From Nitrososphaerota archaeon (GTDB lineage Archaea; Thermoproteota; Nitrososphaeria; Conexivisphaerales; UBA164), in contig JAMCTX010000002.1 in NCBI GenBank assembly GCA_023381255.1, forward strand, positions 2,477 through 66,476: 64,000 bases of DNA, given 5' to 3'. Each line of letters opens with the position of its first letter. The stretch's first letter is position 1. A program made the position numbers and the translations under genes. Positions 774-17,435 of this stretch are shown here, piece after piece. The notes under the pieces were generated by a model. It did no database searches and was not told the DNA's origin. It saw nothing but the letters and a program-made list of their open reading frames with translations.

Positions 774-1033
774 TCATCATTGAACGCTTTGTTAAATTCG
801 TTCAATCTTATTCCGTTAATTTTGATGGTAATGCGCTCATCTATCTTTTTTTGGCCGTTCAGGTACGACCTTTCCTCCGCCGACAATAAGCGCATAAAGA
901 CCTGCTCGTTTATCTCCACTGCCGGGGCCGGCTGCTTGCCGTCGCGCTGCGTTGCGTGCTTTCTCCTGCCCTTCTTTGCGCCCCTTTTCATCAATCCAGG
1001 CTGCGCGGGCTTTGGCAATAGCTTCTTGCTCAT
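770..1033 (-). CDS. Hypothetical basic protein
   Basis: ATGA overlaps with both neighbours. Confidence 0.55.
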   Translation of the reverse strand: MSKKLLPKPAQPGLMKRGAKKGRRKHATQRDGKQPAPAVEINEQVFMRLLSAEERSYLNGQKKIDERITIKINGIRLNEFNKAFNDD

Positions 1034-2353: not shown

Positions 2354-2571
2354 TCTGAATCCTCCGTTATACCATCAAGCAGCTCGGATACTTTGGTAAG
2401 CGTGTTATCAACGTCATCAATAAATTTGGCATCAGTAGCCGGCTCCGGAAGGCTTTTTATCTCATCAAGGCTGTCACTTACACTTATGAGCTGTTCCTGT
2501 ATAAACTCAATAAAATTATCAAGCTCTTCGATTTTGGTCATCAATTCCTGTAAAGTTTTGCTCTCACTCAT
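2350..2571 (-). CDS. Acidic coiled-coil hypothetical protein
   Basis: Heptad pattern; operon-coupled. Confidence 0.55.
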   Translation of the reverse strand: MSESKTLQELMTKIEELDNFIEFIQEQLISVSDSLDEIKSLPEPATDAKFIDDVDNTLTKVSELLDGITEDSE

Positions 2572-3094
2572 TTTGTTCTGCCTCCCTGTTTATTTTCAAA
2601 ACTGCGTATGCCGCCAGGTTGCGTTCTGGCTCATTAAATTCTGTTTCATAACCCGAATTCCAGTATTCCAGAACAAAATCAGATATGTTTATTCTCCCAA
2701 GGTTTTTCAGGCCATGAACCCTTACTTTGCCGTCCTTGAATTGCGCATCAGATTGACCGTCAACCTTTGCGCGATAAAACTCCTGCACCATGACTGAACC
2801 GGTTTCGTATGAAATTTCTATTATTGCGTTGCATTTTGGAATCTGCTGAACCTCATCACAAAGCTCGTTTTCATAGGCATATATGTATTTTTTGAATTCT
2901 TTGCTGACAAGCTTTACCGGCACGGTGAAAGCTGTTATGTCATATTCCGCATCATTAGAAAGCTTCACATCATAATATTTGTCGGCAAAAAGCAGTATTT
3001 TAAGCACCTTTTCGCGCCTTATAATCAGGTCATAAACCAGCACGGCTATCAAGCCCGCGGTTGTAGTTGTTGCCATTGTTGAAATGAGATTCAT
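2564..3094 (-). CDS. Hypothetical protein with N-terminal membrane anchor
   Basis: Hydrophobic 'AGLIAVLVYDLII' followed by basic residues. Confidence 0.55.
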   Translation of the reverse strand: MNLISTMATTTTAGLIAVLVYDLIIRREKVLKILLFADKYYDVKLSNDAEYDITAFTVPVKLVSKEFKKYIYAYENELCDEVQQIPKCNAIIEISYETGSVMVQEFYRAKVDGQSDAQFKDGKVRVHGLKNLGRINISDFVLEYWNSGYETEFNEPERNLAAYAVLKINREAEQNE

Positions 3095-3249
3095 TCTGTC
3101 TCTTCCTCCAGTATTTCATTGATTATTTTCACGGAGTCGGTCTTAGCTTGGTTGTACATGGCTTTGTGGTATTCGCACAGCTCTATCCACGCATAGTTGC
3201 CTTCATCGTAGTAAAGGCAGCCGCATTTCAGGTAGGTGGCGATTGTCAT
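3091..3249 (-). CDS. 52-aa putative Zn-binding microprotein (not in ORF track)
   Basis: Manual translation MTIATYLKCGCLYYDEGNYAWIELCEYHKAMY...ETE*; ATGA overlap at both ends; CxC...CxxH. Confidence 0.6.
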   Translation of the reverse strand: MTIATYLKCGCLYYDEGNYAWIELCEYHKAMYNQAKTDSVKIINEILEEETE

Positions 3250-3725
3250 TCTGTTCCTGCCTCCCGCCGTATTTTTGTGACAAGGAAAACAAGCATTCCG
3301 TTGCCTGGGTGCGATATTGGCGTTCCAATTAATTCATATACATCATTGACCCTGATAACCGGAAGCGATTTCTGGAATACATATACCGGCATTGTATAAA
3401 GGAACGGATATATTTCATCACCAAAATGGCGGTTAGGTTGTTCAATGGTAACTATGCTGATTATCGCATATTGGTCTATTATAACGTCTCCTTCAAGCTT
3501 TTTTATAATTTGTTTCAGCCTTTTCATCGATACCGAACCGTACGTTCCCAGTAATTTGAGTAGTTGCGGGTCTCCGTCATGAAAACTGAAATCAGGGCCT
3601 GACAATGGAACAACGAAGTTTGCAGATATATAGATTATTTTTGCCTTAACGATCAAGGTTTTATTGATATATTTAGGGTCAAGAATATCGGACGGGTTTT
3701 CAAGCCTTATTGGTTCGCCGCTCAT
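3246..3725 (-). CDS. Hypothetical protein, possibly MCM N-terminal OB-fold-like
   Basis: Start reassigned to the ATG at 3725 (ATGA overlap); 'YINKTLIVKAKII' and 'RVNDVYELIGTP' resemble MCM OB-fold strands. Confidence 0.45.
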   Translation of the reverse strand: MSGEPIRLENPSDILDPKYINKTLIVKAKIIYISANFVVPLSGPDFSFHDGDPQLLKLLGTYGSVSMKRLKQIIKKLEGDVIIDQYAIISIVTIEQPNRHFGDEIYPFLYTMPVYVFQKSLPVIRVNDVYELIGTPISHPGNGMLVFLVTKIRREAGTE

Positions 3726-4000
3726 TCTATTCTCCCTCCGTGAAAATGCCATTCCGCATGGGCAAGCGCGTCTGAATAGGTCAATGACATGAAACCGCAC
3801 GGCTTTACCACGTTCTTTTTCTGCTCTTTGTCAAACCGTATTATTGGCTTTTTGCAGGTATATTCCTTCCATGTCCTGTCACTCATGTACATGATCCTGA
3901 TTTTGAAATTGAAGAGCAGTTTCTCGCTTTCTACCGGGCTGTCCTGCGAGTAGTATTCGTCTAATATGTATTTGCTGTTCTGCTGCACTTCCTCTGTCAT
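3722..4000 (-). CDS. C2H2-like zinc-finger protein, paralogous to the C-terminus of the 4380-6380 protein
   Basis: YTC...CGF...ALAHAEWH; start at 4000 follows GGAGG. Confidence 0.55.
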   Translation of the reverse strand: MTEEVQQNSKYILDEYYSQDSPVESEKLLFNFKIRIMYMSDRTWKEYTCKKPIIRFDKEQKKNVVKPCGFMSLTYSDALAHAEWHFHGGRIE

Positions 4001-4383
4001 GGCCGTGCCTCCTCCAAAAGGTGCATCGCATACCATGTGGCAAGCCCTTCCAGGTTGACCCTGATTTTAAGCCCGTGTTCAAAATCCTCGCTGAGGAGCA
4101 TTACAACGTCTATGTTAGGGTCGTCAACTGCGTAATATGCAAGCAGCTCTATCTTTGCCATGTCGTTTATGCTGTCAAGCCTGAAAATCAGCGGGTTGCC
4201 GTTTATTTTTATTGCTATAAGTTCGTAAAGGTCTTTTCCAATCATTAATGAATATTCCTGTGTCTCCCAGTCAACTTCCCCGCCTTCCGGCAGCGTTCCT
4301 CCAGGCACCTTTACTATGACTTTGCCTTCAATGAACGCCAGGTTCATCGGCATTGCCGTTTTAATTAACTCCTGATAATTCAT
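3997..4383 (-). CDS. Hypothetical protein
   Basis: Operon-coupled ORF. Confidence 0.55.
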   Translation of the reverse strand: MNYQELIKTAMPMNLAFIEGKVIVKVPGGTLPEGGEVDWETQEYSLMIGKDLYELIAIKINGNPLIFRLDSINDMAKIELLAYYAVDDPNIDVVMLLSEDFEHGLKIRVNLEGLATWYAMHLLEEARP

Positions 4384-6380
4384 TTCTTGCATGCCTCCAT
4401 GTGATTCAGTGCTTCAGCGATTGTTGTTGTCGCAAAGCCGCATTTCATGCACGTATAGAGCTTCACTTCTTTGCCTTCCACATCCTTTAGATATACCCTG
4501 TATCCGCTAAGTTGCCTCTCTTCCTGTTCTGTGCTATTGATAGCAAGATATGTGTCAATTGTACGAGCGATAACATATTTCTTGTTATCTTCCTGCAAGT
4601 TTGTGCCCGATCCGGCATTTGTGCCCGTTGTGCCCGTTGTTAACGGGGTTTGAGCGGGTATTTTATCGTCTTTTTTGACGTTGCCGTTATTTTCCTTTTT
4701 TGTTTCATTGACTTGGTGTTCAGGGTCAATGTTGTCTAAACTGCCTGTTTTTTGTTCTGTTTTCCCCTTATTGATGGGCACATCGGGCACTTTTGGCATA
4801 TCGGGCACAATTGACTTTAACGCCAATAGCTCATCCTTAGACCATATATATCCGTGGACTGTACTGGGGCCATCTCTCCATTTGGTTACATGCCCAAACA
4901 ACTGTTCCTTGATTATTGACCCAACCCAGTGTGTCGATATTACCCGGTTGTCATTTCCAATAAGCTTGGTTTCAGATTGCTTGCCTGTCTTGTCGATATA
5001 AGGCATCATCTCATCCTTAAGCCTTGACCATATTTGTTCAAACGGCACCCTTATTTTGTCATTCTCATACGAATAGTTGCTTTCCTTTGACATATCGAAA
5101 ATTATGTTAATTATTGCGGTAATTGCACTGTTCCCTGTTTCCTCGTCCTTTTCTTTTAGATATTCTTTTACAAATTCACGCATTTCCTGTTCAAGCTCCG
5201 GGGATATCATTTTTGCCAGCGTTATTATTCCGCCAAAGTGTTCCCAATCTCGCCCTTCCTCTATCTGGGAATCTTCGTCAGGAACCTCAAAGCTTGCATA
5301 ATTGGCAACTTTCCACAACAACAAATCGTTCCTGATCTGGTTAAGATTGGCCATAACGGCTTTGTTCCTGTAAAGCTGGCTCCTCGGTTTCTTTGGTTTC
5401 CCATGAATGGCGCGAATGAACATGTATCTGTCCGAATCTGCGTCATCGCCATGCAGCTTGTTTGACCCGACTATCCTTGACCCGTATATATGAAAATTGC
5501 GGACAACCATCCTGTCATATTCCTTGTCACTTCTTGGAACGGTTGCGCCGGGTATATCCCCTTCTCTTGCTATTTCTCTCATTGTGTCGTTTGCCTTTTC
5601 AAATTCCCTGATAATGATAAGCGGCGCATATTCAATTTCCCATCCAAGCGTCCTGTATATTGCGGGTTCGCTCGGTGTTACACCGCTGAACGGCCTGTAC
5701 CCGAGAGATTCTGAAATGATTTGCAACGTTGTCTTGCCTGACCTTCTTGCCCCTATCAACCACAGAAACACCGAACCTATGCTTCTTGTCAGCATGTATG
5801 AATGTATTATGTACAGCGAAAGGAACTTGTGGAGCCTCGGGTCGGAGTAATAGAAATAATCCGTTACAATTGAATGCACCTCTTCGTAAACACTTTTCAA
5901 ATCCGGGGATTTGTTCTGATTAATATATTCATTATTGTCGTCAAACGTGTAAGGCTTAATATACTGAACCGGATGCACCCTGACCGTGTTTGCGTCTATG
6001 TAGTCGGAGAACATATACTTCCCCTTTTCATAGTATATGAACATGTCCTTCCCGGCTGTCCTGATCGCCTCATAGCATGTGTCTCCGTCAACCCAGAACG
6101 GCACATAATACTTCTGTTTGACAACGGATTCATTGACAAGCTCAGGCATTATGGTGGCAAAGTTCCTGATTATTTCGGCGCGGGCTTCCTTCTTAATACC
6201 TAAACGGTTCAGCGTCTTGTCAATTGCGTCAAGATAATTTTCTATCGTTGATTCATGGCTAATAAGGAAACTGAACACCTGCCCGTTGACCTCTAACCTG
6301 AAAAGCAACCCGTCATTTGTGATCGTGACGGTGCCATAGTCCTTGATTTCATACTCCTTTTTCTTTGCATCAATAACCAT
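4380..6380 (-). CDS. P-loop NTPase, putative replication helicase/initiator with C-terminal Zn finger
   Basis: Walker A 'GARRSGKTT'; Walker-B-like 'LIIIREFE'; low-complexity linker; 'YTCMKCGF...H...C'. Confidence 0.7.
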   Translation of the reverse strand: MVIDAKKKEYEIKDYGTVTITNDGLLFRLEVNGQVFSFLISHESTIENYLDAIDKTLNRLGIKKEARAEIIRNFATIMPELVNESVVKQKYYVPFWVDGDTCYEAIRTAGKDMFIYYEKGKYMFSDYIDANTVRVHPVQYIKPYTFDDNNEYINQNKSPDLKSVYEEVHSIVTDYFYYSDPRLHKFLSLYIIHSYMLTRSIGSVFLWLIGARRSGKTTLQIISESLGYRPFSGVTPSEPAIYRTLGWEIEYAPLIIIREFEKANDTMREIAREGDIPGATVPRSDKEYDRMVVRNFHIYGSRIVGSNKLHGDDADSDRYMFIRAIHGKPKKPRSQLYRNKAVMANLNQIRNDLLLWKVANYASFEVPDEDSQIEEGRDWEHFGGIITLAKMISPELEQEMREFVKEYLKEKDEETGNSAITAIINIIFDMSKESNYSYENDKIRVPFEQIWSRLKDEMMPYIDKTGKQSETKLIGNDNRVISTHWVGSIIKEQLFGHVTKWRDGPSTVHGYIWSKDELLALKSIVPDMPKVPDVPINKGKTEQKTGSLDNIDPEHQVNETKKENNGNVKKDDKIPAQTPLTTGTTGTNAGSGTNLQEDNKKYVIARTIDTYLAINSTEQEERQLSGYRVYLKDVEGKEVKLYTCMKCGFATTTIAEALNHMEACKK
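4601..4810. repeat. Inverted clusters of TGTGCCCG iteron-like repeats (candidate replication origin)
   Basis: TGTGCCCG at 4602, 4620, 4629; inverted exact or near copies at 4775, 4784, 4802; perfect 10-bp IR 4601-4610/4801-4810; T-rich spacer between. Confidence 0.5.
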
Positions 6381-6696
6381 GCTTGCTCAACCACACACCA
6401 ACTTTTTGTTTCTGCCCTTCATGCTTCATTATTTCCGGCTTGGGATTATTCGACAGTTTCGAATTGATGCTTTGCCATGCAGTTCTTACCTTTTCAATTG
6501 CGTTTAACCGGTCATTAAAACCATCTATCGAATCAAAGGCTTTCATGGCCACCAGGTCGCCTAACGGTATGTCAAATGGTTGCCCCGGATTGTAATTCCA
6601 CCTTGTAGGTGTTCCGTTGAATTTTACCTTGATAAGGCCATATTCATTGATTTCTACTTCAATTGAATTCTGTCCGTAGAATATAGTTCTGTTCAT
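6370..6696 (-). CDS. Hypothetical protein
   Basis: Operon-coupled ORF. Confidence 0.55.
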   Translation of the reverse strand: MNRTIFYGQNSIEVEINEYGLIKVKFNGTPTRWNYNPGQPFDIPLGDLVAMKAFDSIDGFNDRLNAIEKVRTAWQSINSKLSNNPKPEIMKHEGQKQKVGVWLSKHGY

Positions 6697-7034
6697 TGCC
6701 CCATGACCTCCGCTATGTATTCAAGTGCTATTTCATCGCCTGCCTGCTTTGCTTCATTGATATTCTTCATGTTTGGAAAATTGTGAATTATCCTGTTTAC
6801 GATTTCTGTCCATGCTTCGTTTGCATCTATGCCCTTTCTCGCCAGCACCTGCAAGAATTTCTTTCTTATGTCGATCCTGCCGACAGGGCCGACGTAACAA
6901 TTCTTGGTCTCCGCCTGCCACTTGTGGTGGATGTACCAGTATTGCCTGTTGCCGCGCGCAAGCACTACAAGCTCGCCTACGGCATCATGCTTCACGCAGT
7001 AGCCGTGCTTCACTGTTTTTTGCTCGGCGATCAA
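6693..7034 (-). CDS. Putative DNA-binding protein of archaeal mobile elements
   Basis: 'RGNRQYWYIHHK...KNCYVGP' resembles SSV1 D-335 N-terminal-like motifs. Confidence 0.45.
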   Translation of the reverse strand: MIAEQKTVKHGYCVKHDAVGELVVLARGNRQYWYIHHKWQAETKNCYVGPVGRIDIRKKFLQVLARKGIDANEAWTEIVNRIIHNFPNMKNINEAKQAGDEIALEYIAEVMGQ

Positions 7035-7276
7035 TGATACATGCCTCCCTGTTTTCCCTGAGGTTGCTTCACAAGGCCCTGCGGAACCTGGGCCAATCTC
7101 ACCACGTTTGTAGTTTGCACCGCGTAGATTGGAATCCCGGTGTTCGGGTCGTTGCCCATCCTCATTACGCCGGCTATCTCCATTTTCACCTTCAGCACAG
7201 TGCCGTCCTTGAGCTTCAGCGTGACCCAGTGGTCCGCCCCTTCATCGGCAAAGTCAACCAATTCAGGCGCGCTCAT
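7031..7276 (-). CDS. Small conserved-looking hypothetical protein
   Basis: 'WVTLKLKDGTVLKVK...DPNTGIPIYAVQTTNVV'. Confidence 0.6.
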   Translation of the reverse strand: MSAPELVDFADEGADHWVTLKLKDGTVLKVKMEIAGVMRMGNDPNTGIPIYAVQTTNVVRLAQVPQGLVKQPQGKQGGMYH

Positions 7277-7515
7277 ATTTTTGCCTCCGCCTTCATTTTC
7301 TTATACAGTTCAAGCGCGCCAATTTCGGCCGCTTCAATATAACCGTGCTTATGCTCTATTCGTGAAGCGAAAGAATAATGTATTGAATGCTCAAATTTGC
7401 GGCGCAAACTGTCTATTTGGTTGCATGTTTCGTTGTCTAAGCAGTCGAAATTCTCAAGAATGTCTATGAGGAAATCTATTTCATCCGTTTCTAAGCTGAC
7501 CCTAATTTTACTCAT
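7273..7515 (-). CDS. Hypothetical protein
   Basis: Operon-coupled ORF. Confidence 0.5.
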   Translation of the reverse strand: MSKIRVSLETDEIDFLIDILENFDCLDNETCNQIDSLRRKFEHSIHYSFASRIEHKHGYIEAAEIGALELYKKMKAEAKI

Positions 7516-7892
7516 TCCTGCACCACTTCCTCCTCTGTTTTGGGAACGAATGAATCCGGCACCCTGTATTTGATTTTATACATGTCATGCCATATGCGTG
7601 AAACACAATGGCTTGTGTCTAATTTGTCGATGGCCTTATGAACCAGGCGCGCTCCCCTCGTTTTATAGTCAAATATTATTGGGTACGGTATGAACAACGC
7701 CCTCTGGTAATTGCTTTCATCCGTAAAGTATAACCCCAATAGCCAGTAGTACCTGTCATCATTGATTTCGCATTCATCAAATTTATCTATGAGAACATAT
7801 AGAGACTGTTCTAAGATATCACGCTCTTTAAGCAGCACCGCCGTGTCAAAGAACAGCTTGTTTTTTAGGTATAGGTATCCTTTTTGTTTCAT
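7512..7892 (-). CDS. Hypothetical protein
   Basis: Operon-coupled ORF. Confidence 0.5.
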   Translation of the reverse strand: MKQKGYLYLKNKLFFDTAVLLKERDILEQSLYVLIDKFDECEINDDRYYWLLGLYFTDESNYQRALFIPYPIIFDYKTRGARLVHKAIDKLDTSHCVSRIWHDMYKIKYRVPDSFVPKTEEEVVQE

Positions 7893-8365
7893 ATTTGCGC
7901 CACCTCCACAAGCCTCAGCACGCGATCCGCAAGCCTGGGGTAGGTCTTTGACGTGTAGTGCGCCAAAGTCTGCATGTATGCTTCATCGCAAAGGTCGCAA
8001 AGGTATCCGTGTATCCTGCCGCTGACTACGTGAATGTTGACATGGTAGCCGCCCCTTTCCAGGGTGAATTCGTGCCCGCATAGCTCACACGCTTGGGGCT
8101 TATATTGAATTGCCGCCGAAAGCATGAATTCCTCTGACGGGAATCCCGCATTCTGCCTCCAGTCAAGCGGGAACGGGTTCCTTATCAAATCCCCTGAAAT
8201 GCGCTGGTAGTAATACCACGTGTTCTTGATTAGCTGCGTCGGCTCGTTGTAGAACATGCATGCAATTTCAAAAGGCACGTAATTGTGGTCCACCACCTCC
8301 GCGCGCCTGTAAGCGTCATTCTTGGCCTTTAACGGTCTCCACGGCAGGCTTTCGATGTTGGTCAT
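7889..8365 (-). CDS. Endonuclease VII-like (His-Me finger) Zn-binding protein, catalytic residues apparently degenerate
   Basis: 'CELCG...YHVNIHVVSGRIHGYLCDLCD' versus the EndoVII consensus CxxC...VDHDHxTGxVRGLLCxxCN. Confidence 0.5.
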   Translation of the reverse strand: MTNIESLPWRPLKAKNDAYRRAEVVDHNYVPFEIACMFYNEPTQLIKNTWYYYQRISGDLIRNPFPLDWRQNAGFPSEEFMLSAAIQYKPQACELCGHEFTLERGGYHVNIHVVSGRIHGYLCDLCDEAYMQTLAHYTSKTYPRLADRVLRLVEVAQI

Positions 8366-8619
8366 TGCATGTGAACCTCCTTAGAAATGGAATCAGGCTG
8401 AATTTCATCTGTAATTTCGTGTGTATATTCCACCTTTGCAGAAACGTATTTGACCCAATCTTCTACAACTATTCCATTTTTGTTCCTGATCTCTATTTCG
8501 TAATCCTGTATGTTCCATTTGTAATATTCGCTGCTGTATGCATGCATCGTTGTTCCGTCATATATTTCGAGAACCATTCCAATCAGTTTTATTTTTTTGT
8601 ATGTTTGTTCAGGGTTCAT
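8362..8619 (-). CDS. Hypothetical protein
   Basis: Start reassigned to MNPEQ (ATGA overlap, GGAGG upstream). Confidence 0.5.
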   Translation of the reverse strand: MNPEQTYKKIKLIGMVLEIYDGTTMHAYSSEYYKWNIQDYEIEIRNKNGIVVEDWVKYVSAKVEYTHEITDEIQPDSISKEVHMQ

Positions 8620-8906
8620 TGCTTGCAGCCTCCTTTTAAAAACCATTCTAAAGCGTCAATCTTTCCGCAGATGTACATTTCTTTTGCAAAGTCAGTTCCG
8701 GGGGTCGAGCTTCGCAAGATTTTATACTCCCTTTCCAACGCCATTTCAGCCTGCCAATCGTCGCGAAATTTGAGAGATTCGTTTAAACCGTCGATCCACC
8801 CCTTGTATTCTTGCTCCCCTTCGGGCGCGGGAAGCGCGCTTTGGTAGTCTTGCAGGTTTTTACCCACATTGCCTATTAATTTGTTTATTTCGCTTTCGCT
8901 TCTCAT
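8616..8906 (-). CDS. Hypothetical protein
   Basis: Operon-coupled; internal 'GWIDGL'/'GKIDALEW' repeat. Confidence 0.55.
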   Translation of the reverse strand: MRSESEINKLIGNVGKNLQDYQSALPAPEGEQEYKGWIDGLNESLKFRDDWQAEMALEREYKILRSSTPGTDFAKEMYICGKIDALEWFLKGGCKQ

Positions 8907-9238
8907 TGTTCAATTGCCTCCTTTCTTACGATGAATATTCTCTGGGCTCCTATCGCCCCAAGCACATTCACGCTTCCCCTTCCCCGATATTTTTCAAAGT
9001 CGTGGCTGTATTTGCTTGCGAATAAACAAAAATCGTCGGTATCCAAGCCGGGATTGTTTTTGAAATAATCGGCGACACTCCTGATTAAGCCCCTGAATTC
9101 ATCAACTTTCAATTTCATTTCAATTGGCAGTGTCAGCACTATTCTTGTTGATGCTTCATAAAGCAGGAGATACGGCACTGCTGACTGCTTCATTGTGGTT
9201 TGGTTCGTTAATTTATTTTCGATTTCCGATAACTTCAT
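8903..9238 (-). CDS. Hypothetical protein immediately downstream of tas
   Basis: ATGA overlap with the tas stop codon. Confidence 0.55.
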   Translation of the reverse strand: MKLSEIENKLTNQTTMKQSAVPYLLLYEASTRIVLTLPIEMKLKVDEFRGLIRSVADYFKNNPGLDTDDFCLFASKYSHDFEKYRGRGSVNVLGAIGAQRIFIVRKEAIEQ

Positions 9239-10086
9239 TGCTTATTCTCCTCCTTGGTGTGGTTCAGGATCGCAACCGCGTATGGTTCATCCGGCGGCTG
9301 CCCGTTGACTTTACGCCAGTTTTCGTAATAGTCTGCGAGGAAGCGTTTAATCATCTTGCGCATAGCCCTCCTGTGCGCATGGAGCGGTGGCGACTTGCAC
9401 CTGCCTACAATCCAGGCCTTTTGTTCCTTATCCCAGATTATTTCTGTGTAATTGGGGTTTTCGTGCATTTCAAGCACGCGCTTCTTCTCTTCGTCGTATA
9501 TCTTCCTGTACGGCTGTGTCCTCTTTTTTAGCAGTGAATCGCCGACTTTCCAGCAAAAAGTCCTGAAATCGGGGTTGTAGTTGATTCTTCTGCCTTTCAT
9601 CGGTTTTACGGTGTGCCCGTCAACCGGCGCAAGACCGGCGTATTTCCATATCGAGCTCGCATGGTGGACTTTGGTCATGTCGATGTAGTATATCAGGCCC
9701 GCAGACAGGACAGGCCCAAGCCCCTTGATATATTTAAGGTATTGCTGGTAAATCGGCACCGTGCCGATCCAGTCCATCATAAGCGGCTTGTATTTCTCCT
9801 CGAATTTCTTCTCCTCTTTTGCCACGTTGAGCAGGTTGTTGATGTATTCGTATTCCTCGGCTGCTATCTTGCCCTCGTTCTTGAGCCTCAGCAATATCCC
9901 AGGCAGCTTTTTGTCGGCGTACTTGTCGGCAAAGTCCTTTTCGTCCTTCTTCTTCTCAACTTCACGCAGGCTCTTACCTTCAGCCCTTGCCTTGATTATC
10001 GCCCTTATCCTGTTCATTGAGCGTATGCGCAGGTCCTGGTGGTCATAGTATGACTGTATTGCGAGGTAACCTTCATCGTCCAGCAA
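9235..10086 (-). CDS. tasA: TIGR-associated Nop-domain protein (TasA-type; IS110/Nop5-related RNA-binding domain, no RuvC or HNH)
   Basis: Coiled-coil 'YYDHQDLRIRSMNRI'; 'IKGLGPVLSAGLI..ID...HASSIWKYAGL'; 'YNP..RTFCWKVGDSLLK'; 'HAHRRAMRKMIKRFL...WR...G...PY'. No DEDD domain. GGAGGTG RBS before a TTG start. Abuts the dual-repeat array. Confidence 0.85.
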   Translation of the reverse strand: MLDDEGYLAIQSYYDHQDLRIRSMNRIRAIIKARAEGKSLREVEKKKDEKDFADKYADKKLPGILLRLKNEGKIAAEEYEYINNLLNVAKEEKKFEEKYKPLMMDWIGTVPIYQQYLKYIKGLGPVLSAGLIYYIDMTKVHHASSIWKYAGLAPVDGHTVKPMKGRRINYNPDFRTFCWKVGDSLLKKRTQPYRKIYDEEKKRVLEMHENPNYTEIIWDKEQKAWIVGRCKSPPLHAHRRAMRKMIKRFLADYYENWRKVNGQPPDEPYAVAILNHTKEENKQ

Positions 10087-10089
10087 GGC

Positions 10090-11169
10090 TCAGGCACCTC
10101 CTGCGCACGGAAAGAATGGGTATCTTTTGCGATTTGGCTCGCTACGTCTCGCTGGATATCTCCGGTCTTTTGGCTCGCTAGGGCTATCTGGATATCTGAC
10201 ATTTGATGGCTCGCTAGGCCTTAATGGGTATCTAGCGCATTCTGGCTCGCTGGTGAGATTTGGGTAACTCGCATTTAGTGGCTCGCTAAATGTACTTGGG
10301 TATCTTTTTCGTTCAAGCTCGCTTCTGGAGAATGGATATCTTTCTGACTTTGGCTCGCTGTTTTTAGATGGATAGCTTACTATAATTGGCTCGCTAACTT
10401 CAGTTGGATATCTTTTCGTAAATGGCTCACTGATGCACAATGGGCATCTTTTTATTATTGGCTCGCTTGATTTTGCTGGGTATCTGGAGTTTGATGGCTC
10501 GCTAGTTATTGATGGATATCTTGCAAACATTGGCTCGCTAACTATTTTTGGGTATCTTGCGGTCCTTGGCTCGCTATTACCAAATGGGTACCTTACACAC
10601 TCTGGCTCGCTGTTGACCCCTGGATATCTCTTTTTTTTAGGCTCGCTATTTATCGCAGGGTATCTTGCAAGACCTGACCCGCTGAATGCAACTGGGCAAC
10701 TTGGATCATACGGCTCGCTAACGAAATATGGGCATCTTTCATAAAATGGCTCGCTAGCCTTTAATGGGTATCTTCGATAACATGGCTCGCTTTCTATAAT
10801 TGGGCATCTTTGGTCAATTGGCTCGCTATCTTTCAATGGATAACTTGCGGAGAGTGGCTCGCTAGGCGTATCTGGGTATCTTGCTTCATGTGGCTCGCTG
10901 ACCGAGTTTGGGTAACTTTTGACAGTTAGCTCGCTACATAGATGGCTCGCTATGAGGCTGTGGGTATCTTCCCCGCAGTGGCTCGCTACTAACTGATGGG
11001 TATCTTTAGTTTTATGGCTCGCTTCATACAATTGGGTATCTTCTTCATAATGGCTCGCTATAATAGATTGGATGTCTTTTAGGTGATGACCCACTGGATA
11101 ACATTGGGTATCTTTGCCTTTCTGGCCCGCTTCATACAATTGGGTATCTAACCCCTGTCCGCCATTCAT
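10090..11169 (-). other. Stop-free 359-codon ORF spanning the whole guide array (translation uncertain)
   Basis: (SEPxxxRYPxxx)n product; ATG overlaps the upstream stop; TGA lies between the tas RBS and the tas start. Confidence 0.35.
10104..11158 (-). repeat. TIGR-like tandem interspaced guide RNA array (29 x 36-nt units plus one 16-nt half unit)
   Basis: Plus-strand TGGGTATCT-like repeats every 36 nt from 10117 to 10909 (23 copies) and from 10961 to 11141 (6 copies), alternating with TGGCTCGCT and separated by variable 9-nt spacers. Sense unit: AGCCA-N9-AGATACCCA-N9-AGCG. Confidence 0.92.
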
Positions 11170-11816
11170 TGCTTTGCCCTCCTCCTCAGATATTTGTTAT
11201 CGGTCGTGAATTCTTCCCCGCCGTGAATGTATTTTTTGTCCGGCGCGGTTTCAATCAGTGCTAATAGTGTCTCAACTTCAGGTATTTTTGATCCGTCCTT
11301 GTTAAGTGTGTAGGCCCATAAACTTCCGTCGTTGTTTTTGTTCCACTTGATACGGTTTATCATTTCGCCAATGTCGTCAGTTTCCTGCCTTTGCTCTATA
11401 AATTCCTCAGCGGACACTTCACCGCCACCTACCAGGTTGCTTATGGCCCTGTTAATTGCCCTTGTAGCGGCTTTGGTCTCTATATTGTGGACAGTTGCGG
11501 CAATGGCTCCTGAAAATTCGCTGCTGTCGCACGCCCCTATCTCTTCAGAAACCCTTCCCGATGGGGCGGTTGCCTTTGCCCTTGCCCTGACTATGTATAT
11601 TCCATCCCGCGTTTCGTGTTCGATTGAAGTTATTTCCACAGAAATGTTAAAAGCGAGGGCGATCTTGCGCCAGCCCGACCTCTTGATGTAGCGTTTTCCC
11701 GAAATGGTCACCGTGTCGTTGTCGTCAAGCAGCCTGGTCTTGAGCTGCTGGAATGCCTGCATGCTTTCCACCGCTTGAGCTACGTTAGGCATTACAACCG
11801 CAATGTCGTCAGTCAA
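11166..11816 (-). CDS. Putative Rad52/Sak-like single-strand annealing protein
   Basis: 'YIKRSGWRKIALAFNIS', 'RAKATAPSGR..E.IGAC', 'KAATRAINRAISNLVGGGEVSAEE'. Confidence 0.6.
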   Translation of the reverse strand: MTDDIAVVMPNVAQAVESMQAFQQLKTRLLDDNDTVTISGKRYIKRSGWRKIALAFNISVEITSIEHETRDGIYIVRARAKATAPSGRVSEEIGACDSSEFSGAIAATVHNIETKAATRAINRAISNLVGGGEVSAEEFIEQRQETDDIGEMINRIKWNKNNDGSLWAYTLNKDGSKIPEVETLLALIETAPDKKYIHGGEEFTTDNKYLRRRAKQ

Positions 11817-12193
11817 TATGGCTCCCTCATTTCTTTTAGCTGCATGAATGCCAATGTTTCATCCTGCTCCCTGACCTTTTGCTCAAGCTCCTTTTGCCTT
11901 TGTTTGATTTCAAGATATTCTTCCTTTGACACTATCACGAACCCGTCATTCATCCTGTATAAGTACCCGTTCCTGCCCGCAAGCAACTTGCTGATTTCAC
12001 CGGGATGCAAAGTCGCCACCTCAACTGTCTCCCTTACTCCGCGCGCAAAATAGGACCTGGTGAAGCGTATCATGCCGTCATCTTCTACCTTGTATGCGCT
12101 AACCCAGTAGCGCATGTTTCTATTCGTTATAACGGTGTGATAAAAGTGCTTTTGCTGTGATTCCCATTTTTCCTTGAATTCATCAAGGTTCAT
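11813..12193 (-). CDS. Hypothetical protein with C-terminal coiled coil
   Basis: Operon-coupled ORF. Confidence 0.55.
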   Translation of the reverse strand: MNLDEFKEKWESQQKHFYHTVITNRNMRYWVSAYKVEDDGMIRFTRSYFARGVRETVEVATLHPGEISKLLAGRNGYLYRMNDGFVIVSKEEYLEIKQRQKELEQKVREQDETLAFMQLKEMREPY

Positions 12194-12339
12194 GCCGCGG
12201 ACCTCTCCAGGAGTAGCTTTATGCTATTGACCTTTTCCTCGATCCTTGCAAGGTCCTTGATGACCTGGCTTCTCAGCTCTGCATTTTCCTGCTTCAGCCT
12301 CCTCAGCTCTGCCTTTTCAATTAGTGATTGTTGTGCCAT
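12190..12339 (-). CDS. 49-aa coiled-coil microprotein (not in ORF track)
   Basis: MAQQSLIEKAELRRLKQENAELRSQVIKDLARIEEKVNSIKLLLERSAA*; fills the gap exactly; GGTGA upstream. Confidence 0.6.
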   Translation of the reverse strand: MAQQSLIEKAELRRLKQENAELRSQVIKDLARIEEKVNSIKLLLERSAA

Positions 12340-12777
12340 TTATGCACTCACCATTAGAAATTCGTGTAACAGTTTTTGCAAGAAAGCTGGCACTGCGTTT
12401 ATTGATCCTTCAGTATAGGGTAATATTTCACCGCCTAAACTTGTAGTTTCTGAATGATAATACAGGGTTATTTCATCATACCCATTTTTACTTGCCGGAT
12501 TCCTGTTAAGCAAAGTTACAGAGCCATATAACGAGTTTTGTGAGGTTTCTTCATATTTGTAAAGAAATACTGTCTGGTCATATATTACCCATTCAAGTAT
12601 GCGGCTGTCCATGGTAGTTAGTCCGTCTATTTTATTCTCAAATTCCGGCTTAATCTCCTCGCCATTCAGGCGGAAGATTCTGTTCTCCTCATAATTTATT
12701 ATGTCTGAAAATAAGCTCTTTGTGGTTATGCCTTTATATTTAAAGAACGTGTTTTTTGCCGATTTCGCTTGCATCAT
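12340..12777 (-). CDS. Hypothetical protein
   Basis: Operon-coupled ORF. Confidence 0.5.
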   Translation of the reverse strand: MMQAKSAKNTFFKYKGITTKSLFSDIINYEENRIFRLNGEEIKPEFENKIDGLTTMDSRILEWVIYDQTVFLYKYEETSQNSLYGSVTLLNRNPASKNGYDEITLYYHSETTSLGGEILPYTEGSINAVPAFLQKLLHEFLMVSA

Positions 12778-12980
12778 GCTTCTGCCTCCTCAAGTTTTTC
12801 GAGTGCCTTTTTCGTGTCCTTAAGACTCCGGTTCTCCCCGTCTTTGGACGCAGAGCCGGCAACCGCACTTTTCATCAAACGTTGGACAAGCTGGTCGTAT
12901 GTCTCTCGCTGATACAACTTCAATGTATCAAGCTTCTTTTTTGTGGCTGGTTTTACGGGAACGTTAACATATCTGCTCAT
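12774..12980 (-). CDS. Ribbon-helix-helix/antitoxin-like regulator, first gene of the operon
   Basis: 'YVNVPVKPATKKKLDTLK...RETYDQLVQRLM'; TTTATATA about 23 nt upstream. Confidence 0.7.
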   Translation of the reverse strand: MSRYVNVPVKPATKKKLDTLKLYQRETYDQLVQRLMKSAVAGSASKDGENRSLKDTKKALEKLEEAEA

Positions 12981-13082
12981 TGCAATCTGTTGCAACACGG
13001 AGCTATATAAATATTGCTATTTGCGGCTACGAAAAGCTCATTGTTGCAACAAAAATATATATTTATACTACTGTTGCAATAG
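12979..13082. promoter_or_regulatory. Divergent promoter region with four TTGCAA-core palindromic operators
   Basis: ATTGCAAT 12979-12986, TGTTGCAACA 12988-12997, TTGTTGCAACAA 13041-13052, CTGTTGCAATAG 13071-13082; TATA-like boxes on both strands. Confidence 0.7.
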
Positions 13083-13092
13083 ATTATTTGTA

Positions 13093-13302
13093 ATGAAGGA
13101 GGAAATAATTGGGTTGAGCAAAGTTAATAGGGCAAATAAAACAAATTCGTTACGCATAATTATCCCAGAAAGAATAGGCAAATTTCTCAACGTTACAGCA
13201 GGCGATTCCATCGCGTGGTATTTAGCGGAAACTACGGATGAAAATGGAAATACGGTAAAAATACTAACCATCAAAAAGGCTATGGGTCTTGAACGTCTGT
13301 AA
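13093..13302 (+). CDS. AbrB/MazE-type DNA-binding regulator
   Basis: 'SKVNRAN..NSLRIIIPERIGKFLNVTAGDSIAW'; start reassigned to 13093. Confidence 0.75.
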   Translation: MKEEIIGLSKVNRANKTNSLRIIIPERIGKFLNVTAGDSIAWYLAETTDENGNTVKILTIKKAMGLERL

Positions 13303-13588
13303 TGTCTATTAATGTATATTTTATTTTATGTTTGCTTATTTTCTCTTTTAGCTCTCCGTTTTCCTTTTCAAGCTGTTTTATGCGCGCCTCCAAGTCCTCA
13401 TTTTCCAGCCTGAGCCTTTTGTATTCGCGGACAATAGGTTCAACTTTCTCCGCCGCAAGCCTTTCAATCCTTTCGTTTATCTCATCCGCATGTTCCTCAT
13501 AATAGAGTTTTGCATCAAAATCTTCGCGCATCTCCCTTATCCGCTGCTCCATGACCTGCTCAAAAACACGGCCATAATAATCAGGCAT
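13280..13588 (-). CDS. Coiled-coil hypothetical protein
   Basis: Heptad-rich charged sequence. Confidence 0.55.
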   Translation of the reverse strand: MPDYYGRVFEQVMEQRIREMREDFDAKLYYEEHADEINERIERLAAEKVEPIVREYKRLRLENEDLEARIKQLEKENGELKEKISKHKIKYTLIDITDVQDP

Positions 13589-13699
13589 GATATGGGTAGT
13601 GGAATTTCCGGCTTATAAACTGTTATCGCCACAAAGGGGGGAGGGGGTATATTTTGCGTTTTTTTGCAAAAAAATTGAAATTCATTAGAAAATTACATT

Positions 13700-14836
13700 T
13701 CATTTTTCCACTTTTTTCTTTAATTCCGCAATGTCCTTGAGAATGTCTGCCAACTTTTCAAGCAAATCCGCGTTAGGGATTGCGGACTTTGCAATTTCCT
13801 CCGGGTTCAGCGGCGACCCGCATTTGCCACAATATCTTTGCCCCGGCGTGTTCTCCGCGCCGCACCTGGGGCATTTCAGGGGCACGAATTCGGGTGCCTT
13901 GGGCTTGGTTTCCTTCCCCTTGTAGATTGCCGCCAGCTTGTCGTCAAGGTCCGCGCTTGCCATGTGGACATACCTGGAAGGTGTATCGCTGCCGGAAGCC
14001 CAGCCGTAGCGCAGCCTCATTTCATACTCGGTCAGATAACGGGCGTTCGCGGTTGCGCTTGAATGCCTGAAAAGGTGCGGATAAATCCGTTTCTTTACCC
14101 CAGCCCTTTTCGCTGTCCTTTTCAGCATGACCCTGAGCTTCACGTATGACAGGTGCTTCCCCGGCAGCGATTCCCAGAGCCACGCATCGGGGTTCCCTTT
14201 CCCTGGGTGCTGGTCAAGCCATTGCGAAAGCAGCGGCACCGAGGTTATCAGCCTTTCCGTCCTGCCCCCGGTCTTGCCTGAAACGCGTATTTTGGCTCCC
14301 ATGTCGTCAAAACTCACATCCCCTATTTTTGCCGGCAAAATCTCGCCTATCCTGAACCCGCCGTCGTACAAGACCGCTATTATCGCCTTGTCTCTCGCCG
14401 TTTTTGCGCTGCTTATCAACGCCTTCACCTCATCCTCCGTGAGTATTTCCGGCTCCTTTGTTTCGTTTCGCTTGACACCGGTCCTGATCCACTTTACGAT
14501 GTCGGGGTAGGGCGCGCTCTTTTCTATGCTCCCCGTAAGCAGCCAGCGGTAGAATATCTTAACGCCCCTGAGAGTCGTATCCCTTGTCCACGGGGTCTTT
14601 GTTTCCGTCATTTTCATGACAAACCTTTCTAAGTCATCCTTTGTTGCATCGCGCAGCGGCCTGCCGAGAAACCGGGAAAGTATGATCAGCGTTTCAATGT
14701 GCCTGTATATCCTGCTGATTGAGTAATTGGACTTTTGCAGCGTCCTGACAAACTGCACGGCATCGGGGTCAAGCTTCAGCATCTCCCTTTCAACCTTGGT
14801 CTTGAAATAATAAATGTCGCTCATTATGCTTGCCAT
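13700..14836 (-). CDS. Tyrosine recombinase/integrase with C-terminal zinc ribbon
   Basis: 'YDGGFRIGE', 'GKTG', 'PHLFRHS', 'YGW', 'RYVH'; CPRC...CGKC. Confidence 0.93.
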   Translation of the reverse strand: MASIMSDIYYFKTKVEREMLKLDPDAVQFVRTLQKSNYSISRIYRHIETLIILSRFLGRPLRDATKDDLERFVMKMTETKTPWTRDTTLRGVKIFYRWLLTGSIEKSAPYPDIVKWIRTGVKRNETKEPEILTEDEVKALISSAKTARDKAIIAVLYDGGFRIGEILPAKIGDVSFDDMGAKIRVSGKTGGRTERLITSVPLLSQWLDQHPGKGNPDAWLWESLPGKHLSYVKLRVMLKRTAKRAGVKKRIYPHLFRHSSATANARYLTEYEMRLRYGWASGSDTPSRYVHMASADLDDKLAAIYKGKETKPKAPEFVPLKCPRCGAENTPGQRYCGKCGSPLNPEEIAKSAIPNADLLEKLADILKDIAELKKKVEK

Positions 14837-14859
14837 GGGATGCGTACCTTTTAATCTTT

Positions 14860-14876
14860 AGCCCACCCCCGGCTCC
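14860..14876 (+). other. Candidate att site: tRNA 3'-end fragment
   Basis: AGCCCACCCCCGGCTCC reads as T-stem 3' strand (CCCAC) + acceptor strand (CCCCGGC) + discriminator T + CC; lies next to the integrase start. Confidence 0.5.
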
Positions 14877-14944
14877 TTAATTAAAATATTTTCAGCTGCA
14901 AAAAAGGCAAATAATTTATATTTTAACAATTAATTACTTTCAGC

Positions 14945-15277
14945 ATGAAAGTGAAAGTTCACGTGCACGCATTTGAAGAAAGGAACTCCTTGATTGTATG
15001 GCTAAACGGAAGGCCTGTGCTTGTTGCAAAAGAAGGTGATAAGTTCTATGGTATGGATGCCGTGTGCGCTCACATGGGATGTGCCATTTTAAGCGAAGTT
15101 AACGGGACAACTGCAGTATGCCCTGCCCACGGGGCCAAGTATGATATAACCAATGGCAAAATGATAGAAAAGCCAATGATCAAGCCCGAGATACAGTGCG
15201 AACAGGAAGAAATCAGGCTTCCGTTAAAAACCCACTCGGTCAAGGTGGGGCCTGACGGGCTACTTGACATAGAGTGA
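14945..15277 (+). CDS. Rieske [2Fe-2S] ferredoxin-like protein
   Basis: CAH...CPAHG. Confidence 0.88.
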   Translation: MKVKVHVHAFEERNSLIVWLNGRPVLVAKEGDKFYGMDAVCAHMGCAILSEVNGTTAVCPAHGAKYDITNGKMIEKPMIKPEIQCEQEEIRLPLKTHSVKVGPDGLLDIE

Positions 15278-15413
15278 GCTCTAGAGTGCCATATAATTAA
15301 TGCTCCCCCAAACGCCGGCTGCTGTAGGGGCCAGCAGAAAATAACAATTTAAGGTCACGTTGCAGGCGCATAAAAAATATTTATATAGTATTTGCTATTA
15401 TCTAGCATATGGC

Positions 15414-17435
15414 ATGAATAAAAAATACCTTCAATTAAGTTCCTTGGCTTTTATAATACTTATATCTGTTTCAGGTCCTGTTTCATTTGCTTTTGCGCAG
15501 CCAAATTCCACTACTCCCATTAAGCATGTGATATACATTATGAAGGAAAACCAGTCGTTCGACGATTACTTTGGCGTTTATCCATACGGCCCCAATAATA
15601 TGCTGGTTAACAATTCAATTGTAAAGGAACTTTCAGTCCCCTATGGGATCCAAAATGACACATCAAGCATAAAGGTCCCAAATTACCCTGGACTCGGATG
15701 GCTTTTGGGTTATTCACACTTATCTTACCTAAATTCGTCAACTCAGGTTGATCCGGGCGAAGGCTGGGTTGATTACCACGGCGACTGGGACTGGGGAAGA
15801 AACAACGGGTTTGCTGCATACTCTGGTTCCGCAAGCCTTGTATACGTTTCATACCAGCAGATCCCATTTTACTGGGATTATGCAGAGGAGTACGTGCTTG
15901 CAGACAACTACTATACACCTGTGCTGACAGAAACCCTTCCTAACAGGCTGGCTTCATTATCAGGCTATACTCCCGTATCAAACGACTTCGGGCCGCCTCC
16001 ATACGTGAACCTTAACCAGACAATATTTTACCAGTTAAATCAAAAAGGGGTAAGCTGGGGGTATTTTGAGCTTTTCAGCTCCGCAACCAATCCGCCTTCA
16101 AGCGAAATCTATCCATTAAACTCTATTCAGGGATTCACCAACAATCCGGCTTACATGAACAACGTTGAGAATCTTTCAGTGTTTCTAGCTGAAGCAAAGA
16201 ACGGCACCCTGCCAGCGGTTTCATTTGTTATGCCTTTTGGCCTTGCGGGTGAGGGAAATGTTCCTGATGTTTCAGAGCATCCACCGGCAAACATTACACT
16301 GGGGCAGGATTGGACGGTGAACTTGATTAATGCCGTAATGCAAGGACCAGACTGGAACAGCTCTGCTATATTTATAACGTGGGATGAATGGGGCGGCTTT
16401 TACGACAGCGTACCGCCTCCACAGATGAATGCGTTTGGTTACGGGGGAAGGGTGCCACTTTTAATAATATCGCCATATGCGAAAGAGAATTATGTCGATA
16501 GCACAGTGCTAAATCATGACAGCATACTGAAGTTTATAGATTATAACTGGAACATCCCATATCTCAGTTCTTGGGTTGCGCAATCCGGGAGCGTGCTAAG
16601 CGCGTTTGACTTTAACCAAAATCCAAGGCCGCCTATAATTCTTGGGCCGACTACCACCGTAGCGGGCACAAATGGCAACAGCGGTGGTTATATACAATTT
16701 GAAAACGGCAGCAAATTGTCATTAACTGCTGAGCTAACTTCCGAGCAATACCCAATACCGCTGCAGATCCCATTGAGCTCTTTAAATTACACATCACCTC
16801 CGTTCAAGATGCCTGTATCAACATATGCTTTCAGCGTTCCACCAACATGGCTGTCATCTGCTCAGTTGTTCCTGATATTATTCTCCCTCATAGCGCTGAT
16901 TGTGGCTTTGGTGATCAACAGGTTCAGCAACAGGCTGGGCCTGAGGCAGGTGCTGCTTATAATCAGCGTATTGTTCGGGTTGATTACTTCCGTACTAGGC
17001 ATGATATGGACAGCCATACCTGCACCGCCAGTGCCTCCCACAGAACCAACTTATTCATTTATAACCGATCTGGGTTTCATCATGATAGCCCTTGGAATAA
17101 TAATTTTTGCATTTCCATACATAAGGAAGTACCTGCCCAAGGCTGAAAGCAACCCAATTCCAGACAACATTAAAATGGTGGCAAAGCTTGTAATTATAGG
17201 AGGAGCAGCTGCAGTAATAGCAAGCATAATGGCCACTCCGGGGATAATATTTCCAGTGAGCACGCTTACGCCGAGCCCCCTGAATCCACCTCAGACAGTG
17301 CTGCAGATGTTGCTTGCCACTTTAAGCCCTCTTACAGGAATTGGCGTTTTAATAACAGCAGCATCGCTGAGCGCGCTTTTAATACATACCATGAATATGC
17401 ACAGAAAAGAAATGAAATTAAATCTAACCAATTAA
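15414..17435 (+). CDS. Membrane-anchored phosphoesterase (phospholipase C/acid phosphatase family)
   Basis: Signal peptide; 'IKHVIYIMKENQSFDDYFG', 'TWDEWGGFYD', 'GGRVPLLIISPY'; several C-terminal TM helices. Confidence 0.88.
   Translation: MNKKYLQLSSLAFIILISVSGPVSFAFAQPNSTTPIKHVIYIMKENQSFDDYFGVYPYGPNNMLVNNSIVKELSVPYGIQNDTSSIKVPNYPGLGWLLGYSHLSYLNSSTQVDPGEGWVDYHGDWDWGRNNGFAAYSGSASLVYVSYQQIPFYWDYAEEYVLADNYYTPVLTETLPNRLASLSGYTPVSNDFGPPPYVNLNQTIFYQLNQKGVSWGYFELFSSATNPPSSEIYPLNSIQGFTNNPAYMNNVENLSVFLAEAKNGTLPAVSFVMPFGLAGEGNVPDVSEHPPANITLGQDWTVNLINAVMQGPDWNSSAIFITWDEWGGFYDSVPPPQMNAFGYGGRVPLLIISPYAKENYVDSTVLNHDSILKFIDYNWNIPYLSSWVAQSGSVLSAFDFNQNPRPPIILGPTTTVAGTNGNSGGYIQFENGSKLSLTAELTSEQYPIPLQIPLSSLNYTSPPFKMPVSTYAFSVPPTWLSSAQLFLILFSLIALIVALVINRFSNRLGLRQVLLIISVLFGLITSVLGMIWTAIPAPPVPPTEPTYSFITDLGFIMIALGIIIFAFPYIRKYLPKAESNPIPDNIKMVAKLVIIGGAAAVIASIMATPGIIFPVSTLTPSPLNPPQTVLQMLLATLSPLTGIGVLITAASLSALLIHTMNMHRKEMKLNLTN

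Follow-up and report, generated by a model that had tools for sequence, protein, structure and literature searches.

Sequence analysis of a TIGR-TasA locus on an integrated archaeal element: the guide array is probably also a translatable cistron in frame with tasA

In the recently described RNA-guided TIGR-Tas systems, the dual-repeat TIGR array is described as two alternating repeats of 8–12 nucleotides (nt) which, together with spacers of about 9 nt, form a unit of 36 nt (PMC12045711). Array sizes of 5–15 units are called most common in the text of that article (Faure et al., 2025, PMC12045711), and a preprint gives a number of 6,685 TIGR arrays (bioRxiv 10.64898/2026.09.09.750476). Published dual-repeat arrays number 4,126 in TIGRFinder. 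MbTasA, one of the Tas proteins, binds target DNA and represses transcription (Xu et al., 2026, bioRxiv 10.64898/2026.09.09.750476). The natural targets, the regulation and the origin of the spacers are named as open questions in both texts (PMC12045711; bioRxiv 10.64898/2026.09.09.750476). Here we analysed a stretch of 64,000 nt (the window) from contig JAMCTX010000002.1 of a Nitrososphaerota archaeon (assembly GCA_023381255.1, contig positions 2,477 to 66,476). On its minus strand it carries a TIGR array directly upstream of tasA, a gene for a nuclease-less Tas protein. For an archaeal virus, such an array is said to have been first described by Hochstein et al. in 2016. The best explanation of our data, at a probability of roughly 80%, is a TIGR-TasA system which resides on an integrated archaeal element and whose array is at the same time a translatable cistron in frame with tasA.

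Closest in design are the systems of FpTasA (from Flavonifractor plautii) and MbTasA. As in these, units of 36 nt with edge and loop repeats, two 9-nt spacers and co-varying box D and box C motifs are combined with a solo Nop-domain Tas protein which has a coiled coil and a C-terminal Tyr/His loop and is located on a mobile element. The locus differs from both in its archaeal host, in the number of units, 29, and in its layout. The array lies upstream of tasA in a translationally coupled operon, shows no terminator-like site and as a whole forms a separate stop-free cistron in frame with tasA. It resembles the intragenic TIGR arrays, e.g. that of BlTasA, in that guide units are located inside an unbroken reading frame. 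Intragenic arrays within tas coding sequences are mainly of the stem-loop type and 'less frequently dual repeat', and for these Xu et al. suggest a link between the maturation of the guides, the tigRNAs, and Tas translation (bioRxiv 10.64898/2026.09.09.750476). In contrast, the 29-unit dual-repeat array examined here is a cistron of its own which stops one codon ahead of tasA. Intragenic arrays are a partial precedent for the dual-coding aspect. As a class member the locus is ordinary: the class was published in 2025 and an NCBI family model names the protein.

The array consists of 29 full units of 36 nt, the number given in an earlier note on this DNA which had been made from the letters alone, and of one truncated unit, which that note had overlooked. 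Along the minus strand six units (11167–10952) are followed by the truncated unit and by another 23 units (10935–10108). Within a unit the order is edge repeat AGCGAGCCA, spacer A, loop repeat AGATACCCA and spacer B, each of them 9 nt in length. According to column counts every position of the edge repeat is kept in 25–29 of the 29 units. Of the loop positions, 1, 2, 7 and 8 are kept in all units and 9 in 28 units, and position 6 has C in 20 units and T in nine. Both repeats start with AG (28–29 of 29 units) and end with CCA (25–29 of 29), as had been read earlier. These are the box D and box C motifs which edge and loop repeats have in common in TIGR-Tas systems. TasR arrays use UG...CCA, and box motifs may diverge yet co-vary (PMC12045711); the repeats here begin with AG, not UG. 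With repeats and spacers of 9 nt, a 36-nt unit and an adjoining tas gene the locus corresponds to the published definition of the array. Spacers A are all distinct (29/29) and among spacers B a single 9-mer was found twice, in agreement with the earlier observation that nearly all spacers are unique. Position 9 of spacer A is occupied by A in 22 of 29 units, and position 9 of spacer B by T or C in 23 of 29. Several relatives have repeats that can be read as 10-mers, with an A ahead of the loop and a T ahead of the edge. Possibly 8 nt of each spacer are free.

The ends of the array were examined by the criterion used for TIGR-Tas arrays, i.e. a 5'-truncated edge at the start and a 3'-truncated edge followed by a terminator at the end. 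The first unit has no recognisable edge repeat, its loop repeat begins at 11149, and the repeats of the third unit (11095–11060) are degenerate. Therefore, the boundary of 11158 in the earlier note had to be moved to 11167. Behind the last unit only GCG of an edge is left, and the array runs into the ribosome-binding site of the tas gene, as the note had stated. The gap between array and gene, both on the same strand, is 21 nt. No terminator-like site was found on the minus strand within 8800–12500. Tandem Repeats Finder recovered the array only as fragments with a period of 36, and Rfam at gathering thresholds reported only three tRNAs in the window.

The earlier note had proposed a Nop-domain protein of 283 residues without a nuclease and, as a check, its comparison with TasA, Nop5 and IS110 by profile or structure prediction. 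The protein matched the NCBIfam model NF052498 ('TIGR-Tas system RNA-guided endonuclease') with 168.6 bits (cut-off 100, E 1.8e-49) over profile positions 3–215 of 215. A phmmer search against the PDB sequences gave TasR as the best match (9mty, E 2.1e-22) and TasH with E 4.4e-18. The counterpart of residue 13 in TasR is residue 121, i.e. past the N-terminal RuvC nuclease and at the start of the TasR coiled coil. Pfam returned neither an HNH nor a RuvC domain at E ≤ 1, only Transposase_20 (IS110-type, 24 bits) and a chance match of 0.19. An AlphaFold2 model from 54 sequences was predicted with high confidence (predicted local distance difference test, pLDDT, 92.4; predicted template-modelling score 0.86) and is helical from residue 3. 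Only chains of TasR and TasH occupied the Foldseek ranks 1–10 of this model (template-modelling score, TM, 0.53–0.62; E 1.7e-10 to 1.5e-8). The IS621 recombinase came next (E 5e-3), and Nop5, Nop56 and Prp31 were found merely at E ~1. Residues Y269 and H276 align with Y289 and H296 of SpTasH; both are found without exception in 14 close relatives, and across 54 their conservation is 90% or more. In SpTasH, Tyr289 and His296 are the catalytic residues of pre-tigRNA maturation (PMC13421893, 2026 NAR). Judged by its sequence, TasA keeps the Tyr/His pair for pre-tigRNA processing. Because the Tas model was passed, the fold is TasR/TasH-like, a nuclease domain is absent and the Tyr/His pair is kept, the protein is by all testable criteria TasA, the nuclease-free form of Tas and as such a member of a published class. 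Thus, both parts of the proposal, a TIGR dual-spacer array and a nuclease-less Nop-domain Tas protein, were supported by family model, PDB sequences, fold and Pfam.

We also examined dimerization. A fold of two TasA copies scored 0.49 whereas the best of three controls scored 0.00; the mark of 0.49 was attained by 20 of 30 solved homo-pairs and by one of 23 single chains. Contacts agreed by at least 94% between runs, the pLDDT of the partner was at least 75, and the predicted interface is symmetric with residues 1–40 and 77–106, the coiled-coil helices, on both copies. TasA may form a homodimer through its coiled coil; as solved Tas dimers exist, the outcome of the prediction is a likeness and not a proof. 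TaTasR from a Thermoproteota archaeon (9mty) and SpTasH from Salicola phage CGphi29 (9vzx, 9w03, 21kl), the best matches in sequence and fold, have the Nop fold and a coiled-coil dimer as well, and the Tyr/His dyad is common to SpTasH. Both differ by an N-terminal RuvC or HNH domain and cut DNA, whereas TasA begins at the coiled coil. More distantly, Nop5 of the archaeal box C/D small ribonucleoprotein and the bridge-RNA recombinases IS110/IS621 have a Nop-type RNA-binding fold and a logic of tandem guides. Here, however, the partner logic of fibrillarin and L7Ae and the DEDD recombinase domain are missing, and the guides come as an array. A set of arrayed guides on a mobile element, for binding without cutting, is also a feature of CRISPR arrays whose effectors lack a nuclease (type IV, V-M, dCas9-like). 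In contrast to those, the locus has two alternating 9-nt repeats, split guides of 9+9 nt which read both DNA strands, no cas genes, no protospacer-adjacent motif and an unrelated protein fold. The host genome contains one single tas gene, and none of 40 related genomes had a tas match above the family cut-off (0/40).

Next we consider the array as an open reading frame (ORF), a property which the earlier note had overlooked. An intact frame spans the whole array, and its TGA is in the same frame as tasA. Internal stops are absent; 13.4 were expected and none of 20000 within-spacer shuffles was stop-free. Column-preserving shuffles, which retain the positional base bias, led to 8.3 expected stops, and again none of 20000 was stop-free. 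Even when intact spacers were swapped among the 29 units, 6.65 stops were expected and only two of 20000 trials were stop-free. The five other frames of the array contain 11–31 stops each. The truncated unit changes the translated repeats from ASHxxxDTQxxx before it to SEPxxxRYPxxx behind it. The 5' and 3' blocks of the array are each open only in the frame which is continuous with the ORF (p 0.007–0.008 for the 5' block; 0/2000 and 0/1000 for the 3' block). The two open trials among 20000 swaps and the frame that follows the phase shift therefore indicate that the spacers match the reading frame at their place in the array, which a constraint acting on the RNA alone would hardly explain. Statistically, the sequence shows that the array is also kept as a translatable cistron, with a stop-free frame and a Shine-Dalgarno site and start of its own, and that selection acts for the open, in-frame array.

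Was this property restricted to a single locus? Queries with single sequences retrieved no related loci from viral and genome contigs; alignment queries were needed. In this way 156 related loci (1.06 Mb) were fetched and scanned with a custom period-36 detector. On the tas strand, most of these related arrays are interrupted by stops whichever of the three frames is read. Among 23 non-redundant arrays located ≤200 nt upstream of tas, however, seven were stop-free in the tas frame (0.85 expected), whereas in the other two frames of the same arrays the count was one, as expected (1.01). Of the 57 downstream arrays one was stop-free in the tas frame (0.64 expected). In their non-tas frames a small excess was observed, five stop-free as opposed to 1.62 expected; these arrays may be overlapped by downstream ORFs or form them. 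One downstream array of 15 units (L126:1012-1551) has 36, 0 and 17 stops by frame.

In six of the seven open upstream cases the array is fused to the tas ORF (L002, L079, L080, L093, L107, L112). L002 is a Hadarchaeum metagenome-assembled genome, and the array of L080 has 19 units. An IMG/VR contig (L015) is also largely fused, with one stop at the array start, and in L151 the layout equals that of our locus, with tas behind an array ORF and its stop and in frame with it. Between the last repeat and the first conserved helix of Tas, six fused loci had no in-frame ATG, GTG or TTG. There a complete Tas protein requires translation of the array. Array-encoded 12-residue repeats were present in 22 of 153 related predicted proteins and in none of the composition-shuffled controls. 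By frame, the SEP type was found in 11 proteins and the ASH/ASQ type in 12. P0011, a protein of 589 residues among the closest relatives, changes from ASH to SEP within one ORF, as happens at this locus. The third frame is absent from array-encoded proteins; in this frame each repeat preceded by T would read TAG. In some relatives, units are also in frame at the 3' end of, or within, the tas ORF (L107:3311-3562, P0059, P0091, P0098), where they yield ASH/ASQ-type repeats at the C-terminus; therefore, frame embedding is not restricted to the 5' side.

Many arrays of the relatives have the 9-nt edge repeat of this locus as their consensus. This bears on the notion that the region does no more than encode a protein of 12-residue repeats (SEPxxxRYPxxx) and resembles a guide array by accident. 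An intact ORF with translation signals would agree with it. Yet the repeats are conserved at the nucleotide level with third codon positions included, the same edge repeat is found in relatives' arrays with stops in every frame, and inside the ORF the repeat phase moves relative to the frame. Further, the ORF adjoins a Tas gene with the processing dyad, and its product has no fold and no relatives. We consider such a repeat protein extremely improbable.

Several findings weigh against the explanation favoured here. The spacer codons matched the local codon usage no better than stop-free shuffles did (z ~1); therefore, only the avoidance of stops points to translation of the array. The product of the array ORF was disordered in the Atlas model (pLDDT 0.31), and no credible relatives of it were found in the Atlas, where the nearest clusters were at noise level. 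The peptide looks like disordered filler in this model. With 'no stop' as the sole visible constraint, passage of ribosomes fits better than a need for the peptide. Further, 16 of the 23 upstream arrays and most arrays of the relatives are not open; TIGR function therefore does not need an open frame. Finally, targets were searched for with 58 candidate 18-mers, built from spacer A and the reverse complement of spacer B in both orders. In the host assembly (1.28 Mb) one match with one mismatch and four with two mismatches were obtained, which is no enrichment: per 58 queries, mispaired control 18-mers gave 0.29 and 7.3, and reversed ones 0.5 and 6.0, respectively. In the 156 related loci there was no match at ≤1 mismatch and seven were found at two (controls 0.72 and 8.55). 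The silencing of host genes, which the earlier note had considered, thus received no support. Many false-positive matches are reported for such short spacers (Xu et al., 2026, bioRxiv 10.64898/2026.09.09.750476).

The sole host match with one mismatch is located at 44282–44299 of the window in a protoporphyrinogen-oxidase-like gene; the guide is the 19th full unit (10503–10468). Since controls yield 0.29 such matches per 58 queries it is compatible with chance.

Codon usage with nothing past stop avoidance and a product predicted to be disordered would also suit an array that is a non-coding guide precursor only. The open frame would then be an untranslated by-product or the relic of a recent split between array and tas, and indeed the sequence around the TGA resembles the Gly-rich linker of the fused relatives L080 and L093. 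However, 174 free spacer codons with no stop would decay fast without selection. The split is not brand new, as the closest relative (P0003, 68% identity) starts where tasA starts. In addition, the array ORF has a Shine-Dalgarno site and an ATGA overlap like the adjoining cistrons. We consider an array of this purely non-coding kind unlikely.

A different question is whether some of the ribosomes pass the TGA that separates the array ORF from tasA, which would result in an array-TasA fusion protein comparable to the fused ORFs of relatives. Both ORFs are in one frame with only the TGA and one codon between them, and continuous array-tas frames exist in seven relatives. A shared frame has, however, a chance of one in three, and tasA possesses its own Shine-Dalgarno site and TTG start. 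Moreover, TGA commonly serves as stop here, as it ends 38 of 83 greedy ORFs, often in ATGA overlaps, and no recoding signal was noticed, though none was searched for. Read-through at this TGA is thus quite improbable. An alternative genetic code for the in-frame TGA was considered as well and rejected because TGA ends those 38 ORFs mostly in ATGA overlaps.

In the literature searched, arrays inside reading frames are mentioned only in the text of Xu et al. (2026), and no stop-depletion statistics for TIGR arrays were found in the searched text; figures, supplements and TIGRSafari may list the locus, its clade or the property. To the class the locus adds a very long array of 29 units that forms its own cistron, a quantitative case for a selected open frame which tracks a phase shift, and an excess at the clade level that is specific to upstream arrays and to the tas frame. 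Moreover, as a natural case of TasA it is long and clean, and the chromosomal surroundings of its integrated archaeal element are known. The fit of the spacers to the local frame, with two of 20000 permutations open, constrains models of spacer origin. The data hint at a link of guide making and protein making at this array.

How might such a locus operate? By homology, the array would be transcribed along with the operon, a TasA dimer would bind the AG...CCA (box D/box C) motifs of edge and loop repeats, and Tyr269 and His276 would cut the precursor at the edge repeats into 36-nt tigRNAs. If TasA behaves as its family does, each dimer would hold one tigRNA, spacer A of which would base-pair with one DNA strand of an 18-bp site and spacer B with the other. 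Without a nuclease domain the complex would bind rather than cut and most likely block transcription or replication of its target. This target, absent from the host assembly, would probably be a competing element. Ribosomes would run through the array, which would couple translation of tasA and of the genes behind it to the array, and cutting of the same RNA by TasA would limit its own synthesis in a feedback. Tentatively, we propose a dual-coding RNA: ribosomes must cross the cistron of all 29 guides so that tasA and the dozen genes downstream of it stay translated, each transcript serves either as message or as guide precursor, and TasA sets the balance. If this were true, each spacer would be doubly constrained, by pairing with a target and by the need for no stop codon in the local frame. 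Routes to new spacers would be limited, which would argue for in-place mutation or unit duplication over capture of foreign DNA.

Table 1. Positions of the features in the window.
Feature	Positions	Strand	Remarks
Dual-repeat TIGR array	10108..11167	minus	29 units of 36 nt and one truncated unit; 1060 nt in total
Truncated 16-nt unit	10936..10951	minus	edge plus 7 nt; displaces the repeats by one base against the reading frame
Array ORF	10090..11169	minus	359 codons; spans the whole array; ATG overlaps the TGA of the upstream gene (ATGA); own TGA at 10092–10090, one codon ahead of the tasA start
Purine-rich Shine-Dalgarno-like run GAGGAGGAGGG	11177..11187	minus	7 nt upstream of the array ORF ATG
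tasA	9235..10086	minus	283-residue nuclease-less TIGR-associated Nop-domain protein; TTG start at 10086
GGAGG Shine-Dalgarno site of tasA	10097..10101	minus	Gly-Gly codons within the array ORF; TTG start 10 nt further on
Codons Y269–H276 (YAVAILNH)	9259..9282	minus	aligned with SpTasH Y289/H296
Upstream cistron	11166..11816	minus	216 residues; stop overlaps the array ORF start; phrog_22961 (unknown function), E 4.8e-8
Chain of 20 ORFs with array ORF and tasA	3091..13588	minus	13 of 19 junctions are 4-nt start/stop overlaps
Tyrosine integrase with C-terminal zinc ribbon	13700..14836	minus	PF00589, E 2.3e-20; PF13495; PF13240
att-like 13-nt copy of the tRNA-Cys(GCA) 3' end	14862..14874	plus	between integrase and Rieske gene
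666-residue ORF	4380..6380	minus	no Pfam or PHROGs match; candidate replication protein

Array and tasA are part of a chain of tightly packed ORFs (Table 1). Almost all overlaps in this operon end in TGA, and a GGAGG-type site precedes nearly every start. The gene next behind tasA is located at 8903–9238. Upstream of the chain are a tyrosine integrase and a short copy of a tRNA-Cys end; the host genes start at 14945, the first being that for a Rieske protein. Exact copies of the 13-mer in the genome are this site and the tRNA-Cys itself on contig C8; one further tRNA end, on contig C22, has a single deviating base. G001, a genome from the same genus, has tRNA-Cys directly upstream of the Rieske gene. 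By integrase, tRNA-end copy and the arrangement in G001, array and tasA sit on an integrated mobile element. On contig C8 (32263–57542; L169, L170), some 25 kb of minus-strand ORFs, most of them unknown, lie behind tRNA-Cys(GCA). Among them are a further tyrosine integrase (L169:13377-14354) and a fusion of a DNA methylase with Mrr (L169:16609-18216). Probably, this region is a different element that has integrated at this tRNA. The tRNA-Cys site therefore looks like a hotspot which holds more than one integrated element.

The earlier note had spoken of an archaeal provirus. That the host is archaeal was supported by rRNA genes, which best match archaeal Rfam models, and by metabolic genes: AMP phosphorylase (630 bits, cut-off 535) and type III RuBisCO (584, cut-off 497) are encoded at 28089–29600 and 62242–63708 of the window. 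Both enzymes belong to the archaeal AMP-salvage route. The assembly comprises 1.28 Mb in 25 contigs and is estimated to be 85% complete. For a provirus, only the integrase and the att-like repeat speak. No capsid, portal or terminase gene was detected among 20 ORFs of the element region with Pfam or among 10 with PHROGs, and no DNA match to 50,697 phage records was obtained. Without a virus hallmark the term provirus is therefore unproven; the element may yet be viral because archaeal virus proteins are poorly covered. The 666-residue ORF has structural neighbours in the Atlas among DUF3631/Toprim primase-helicase-like proteins of viruses and plasmids (TM 0.47–0.61). Possibly it is the replication protein of the element, which we regard as a lead only.

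The integrase, 3.6 kb upstream, might also be a partner of TasA. TasA with its guides could be an RNA-guided adaptor that recruits or positions another enzyme, such as the integrase, a host nuclease or a partition protein. Faure et al. propose help to an integrase via DNA bending and mention ParB-linked TasA loci (PMC12045711). However, Pfam detected neither a ParB nor a nuclease family among the 20 ORFs of the element region, and in one tested case, MbTasA, the protein by itself represses and binds DNA. Such an adaptor is, in our view, distinctly unlikely.

We then compared positions 1–18000 of the window with contigs of four DNA runs from three studies (mine-tailings, mine-drainage and sediment metagenomes). 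Contigs covered 8194–14276 or 4009–14276 without a difference from the window; the host flank was variant in one run. This is a weak hint that the array is stable, as the runs may include the source sample. No empty site and no circular form was seen in the four runs, and no contig joined across the element. Several contigs end at 4009, 8194–8219, 14276 and 14874. In run X2 a contig leaves the window sequence after 14719, inside the integrase, and contigs of X2 and X6 end at 14874, the att-like repeat. These breaks at 14719 and 14874 hint that the population contains variant elements or an alternative junction. A scan for sigma-70 promoters was at chance level, with a model that is unsuited to archaea.

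Window positions 1014–2395 form a separate contig of 1382 nt in all four runs. Run X1 had a depth of 1281 in the bin 1201–1800 and of about 33 nearby. In runs X2 and X8 an alternative form exists in which 1296–2343 is exchanged for 21 other letters. The ORFs at 952–1701 and 2099–2797 had no Pfam match. Probably this is a repeated or mobile segment.

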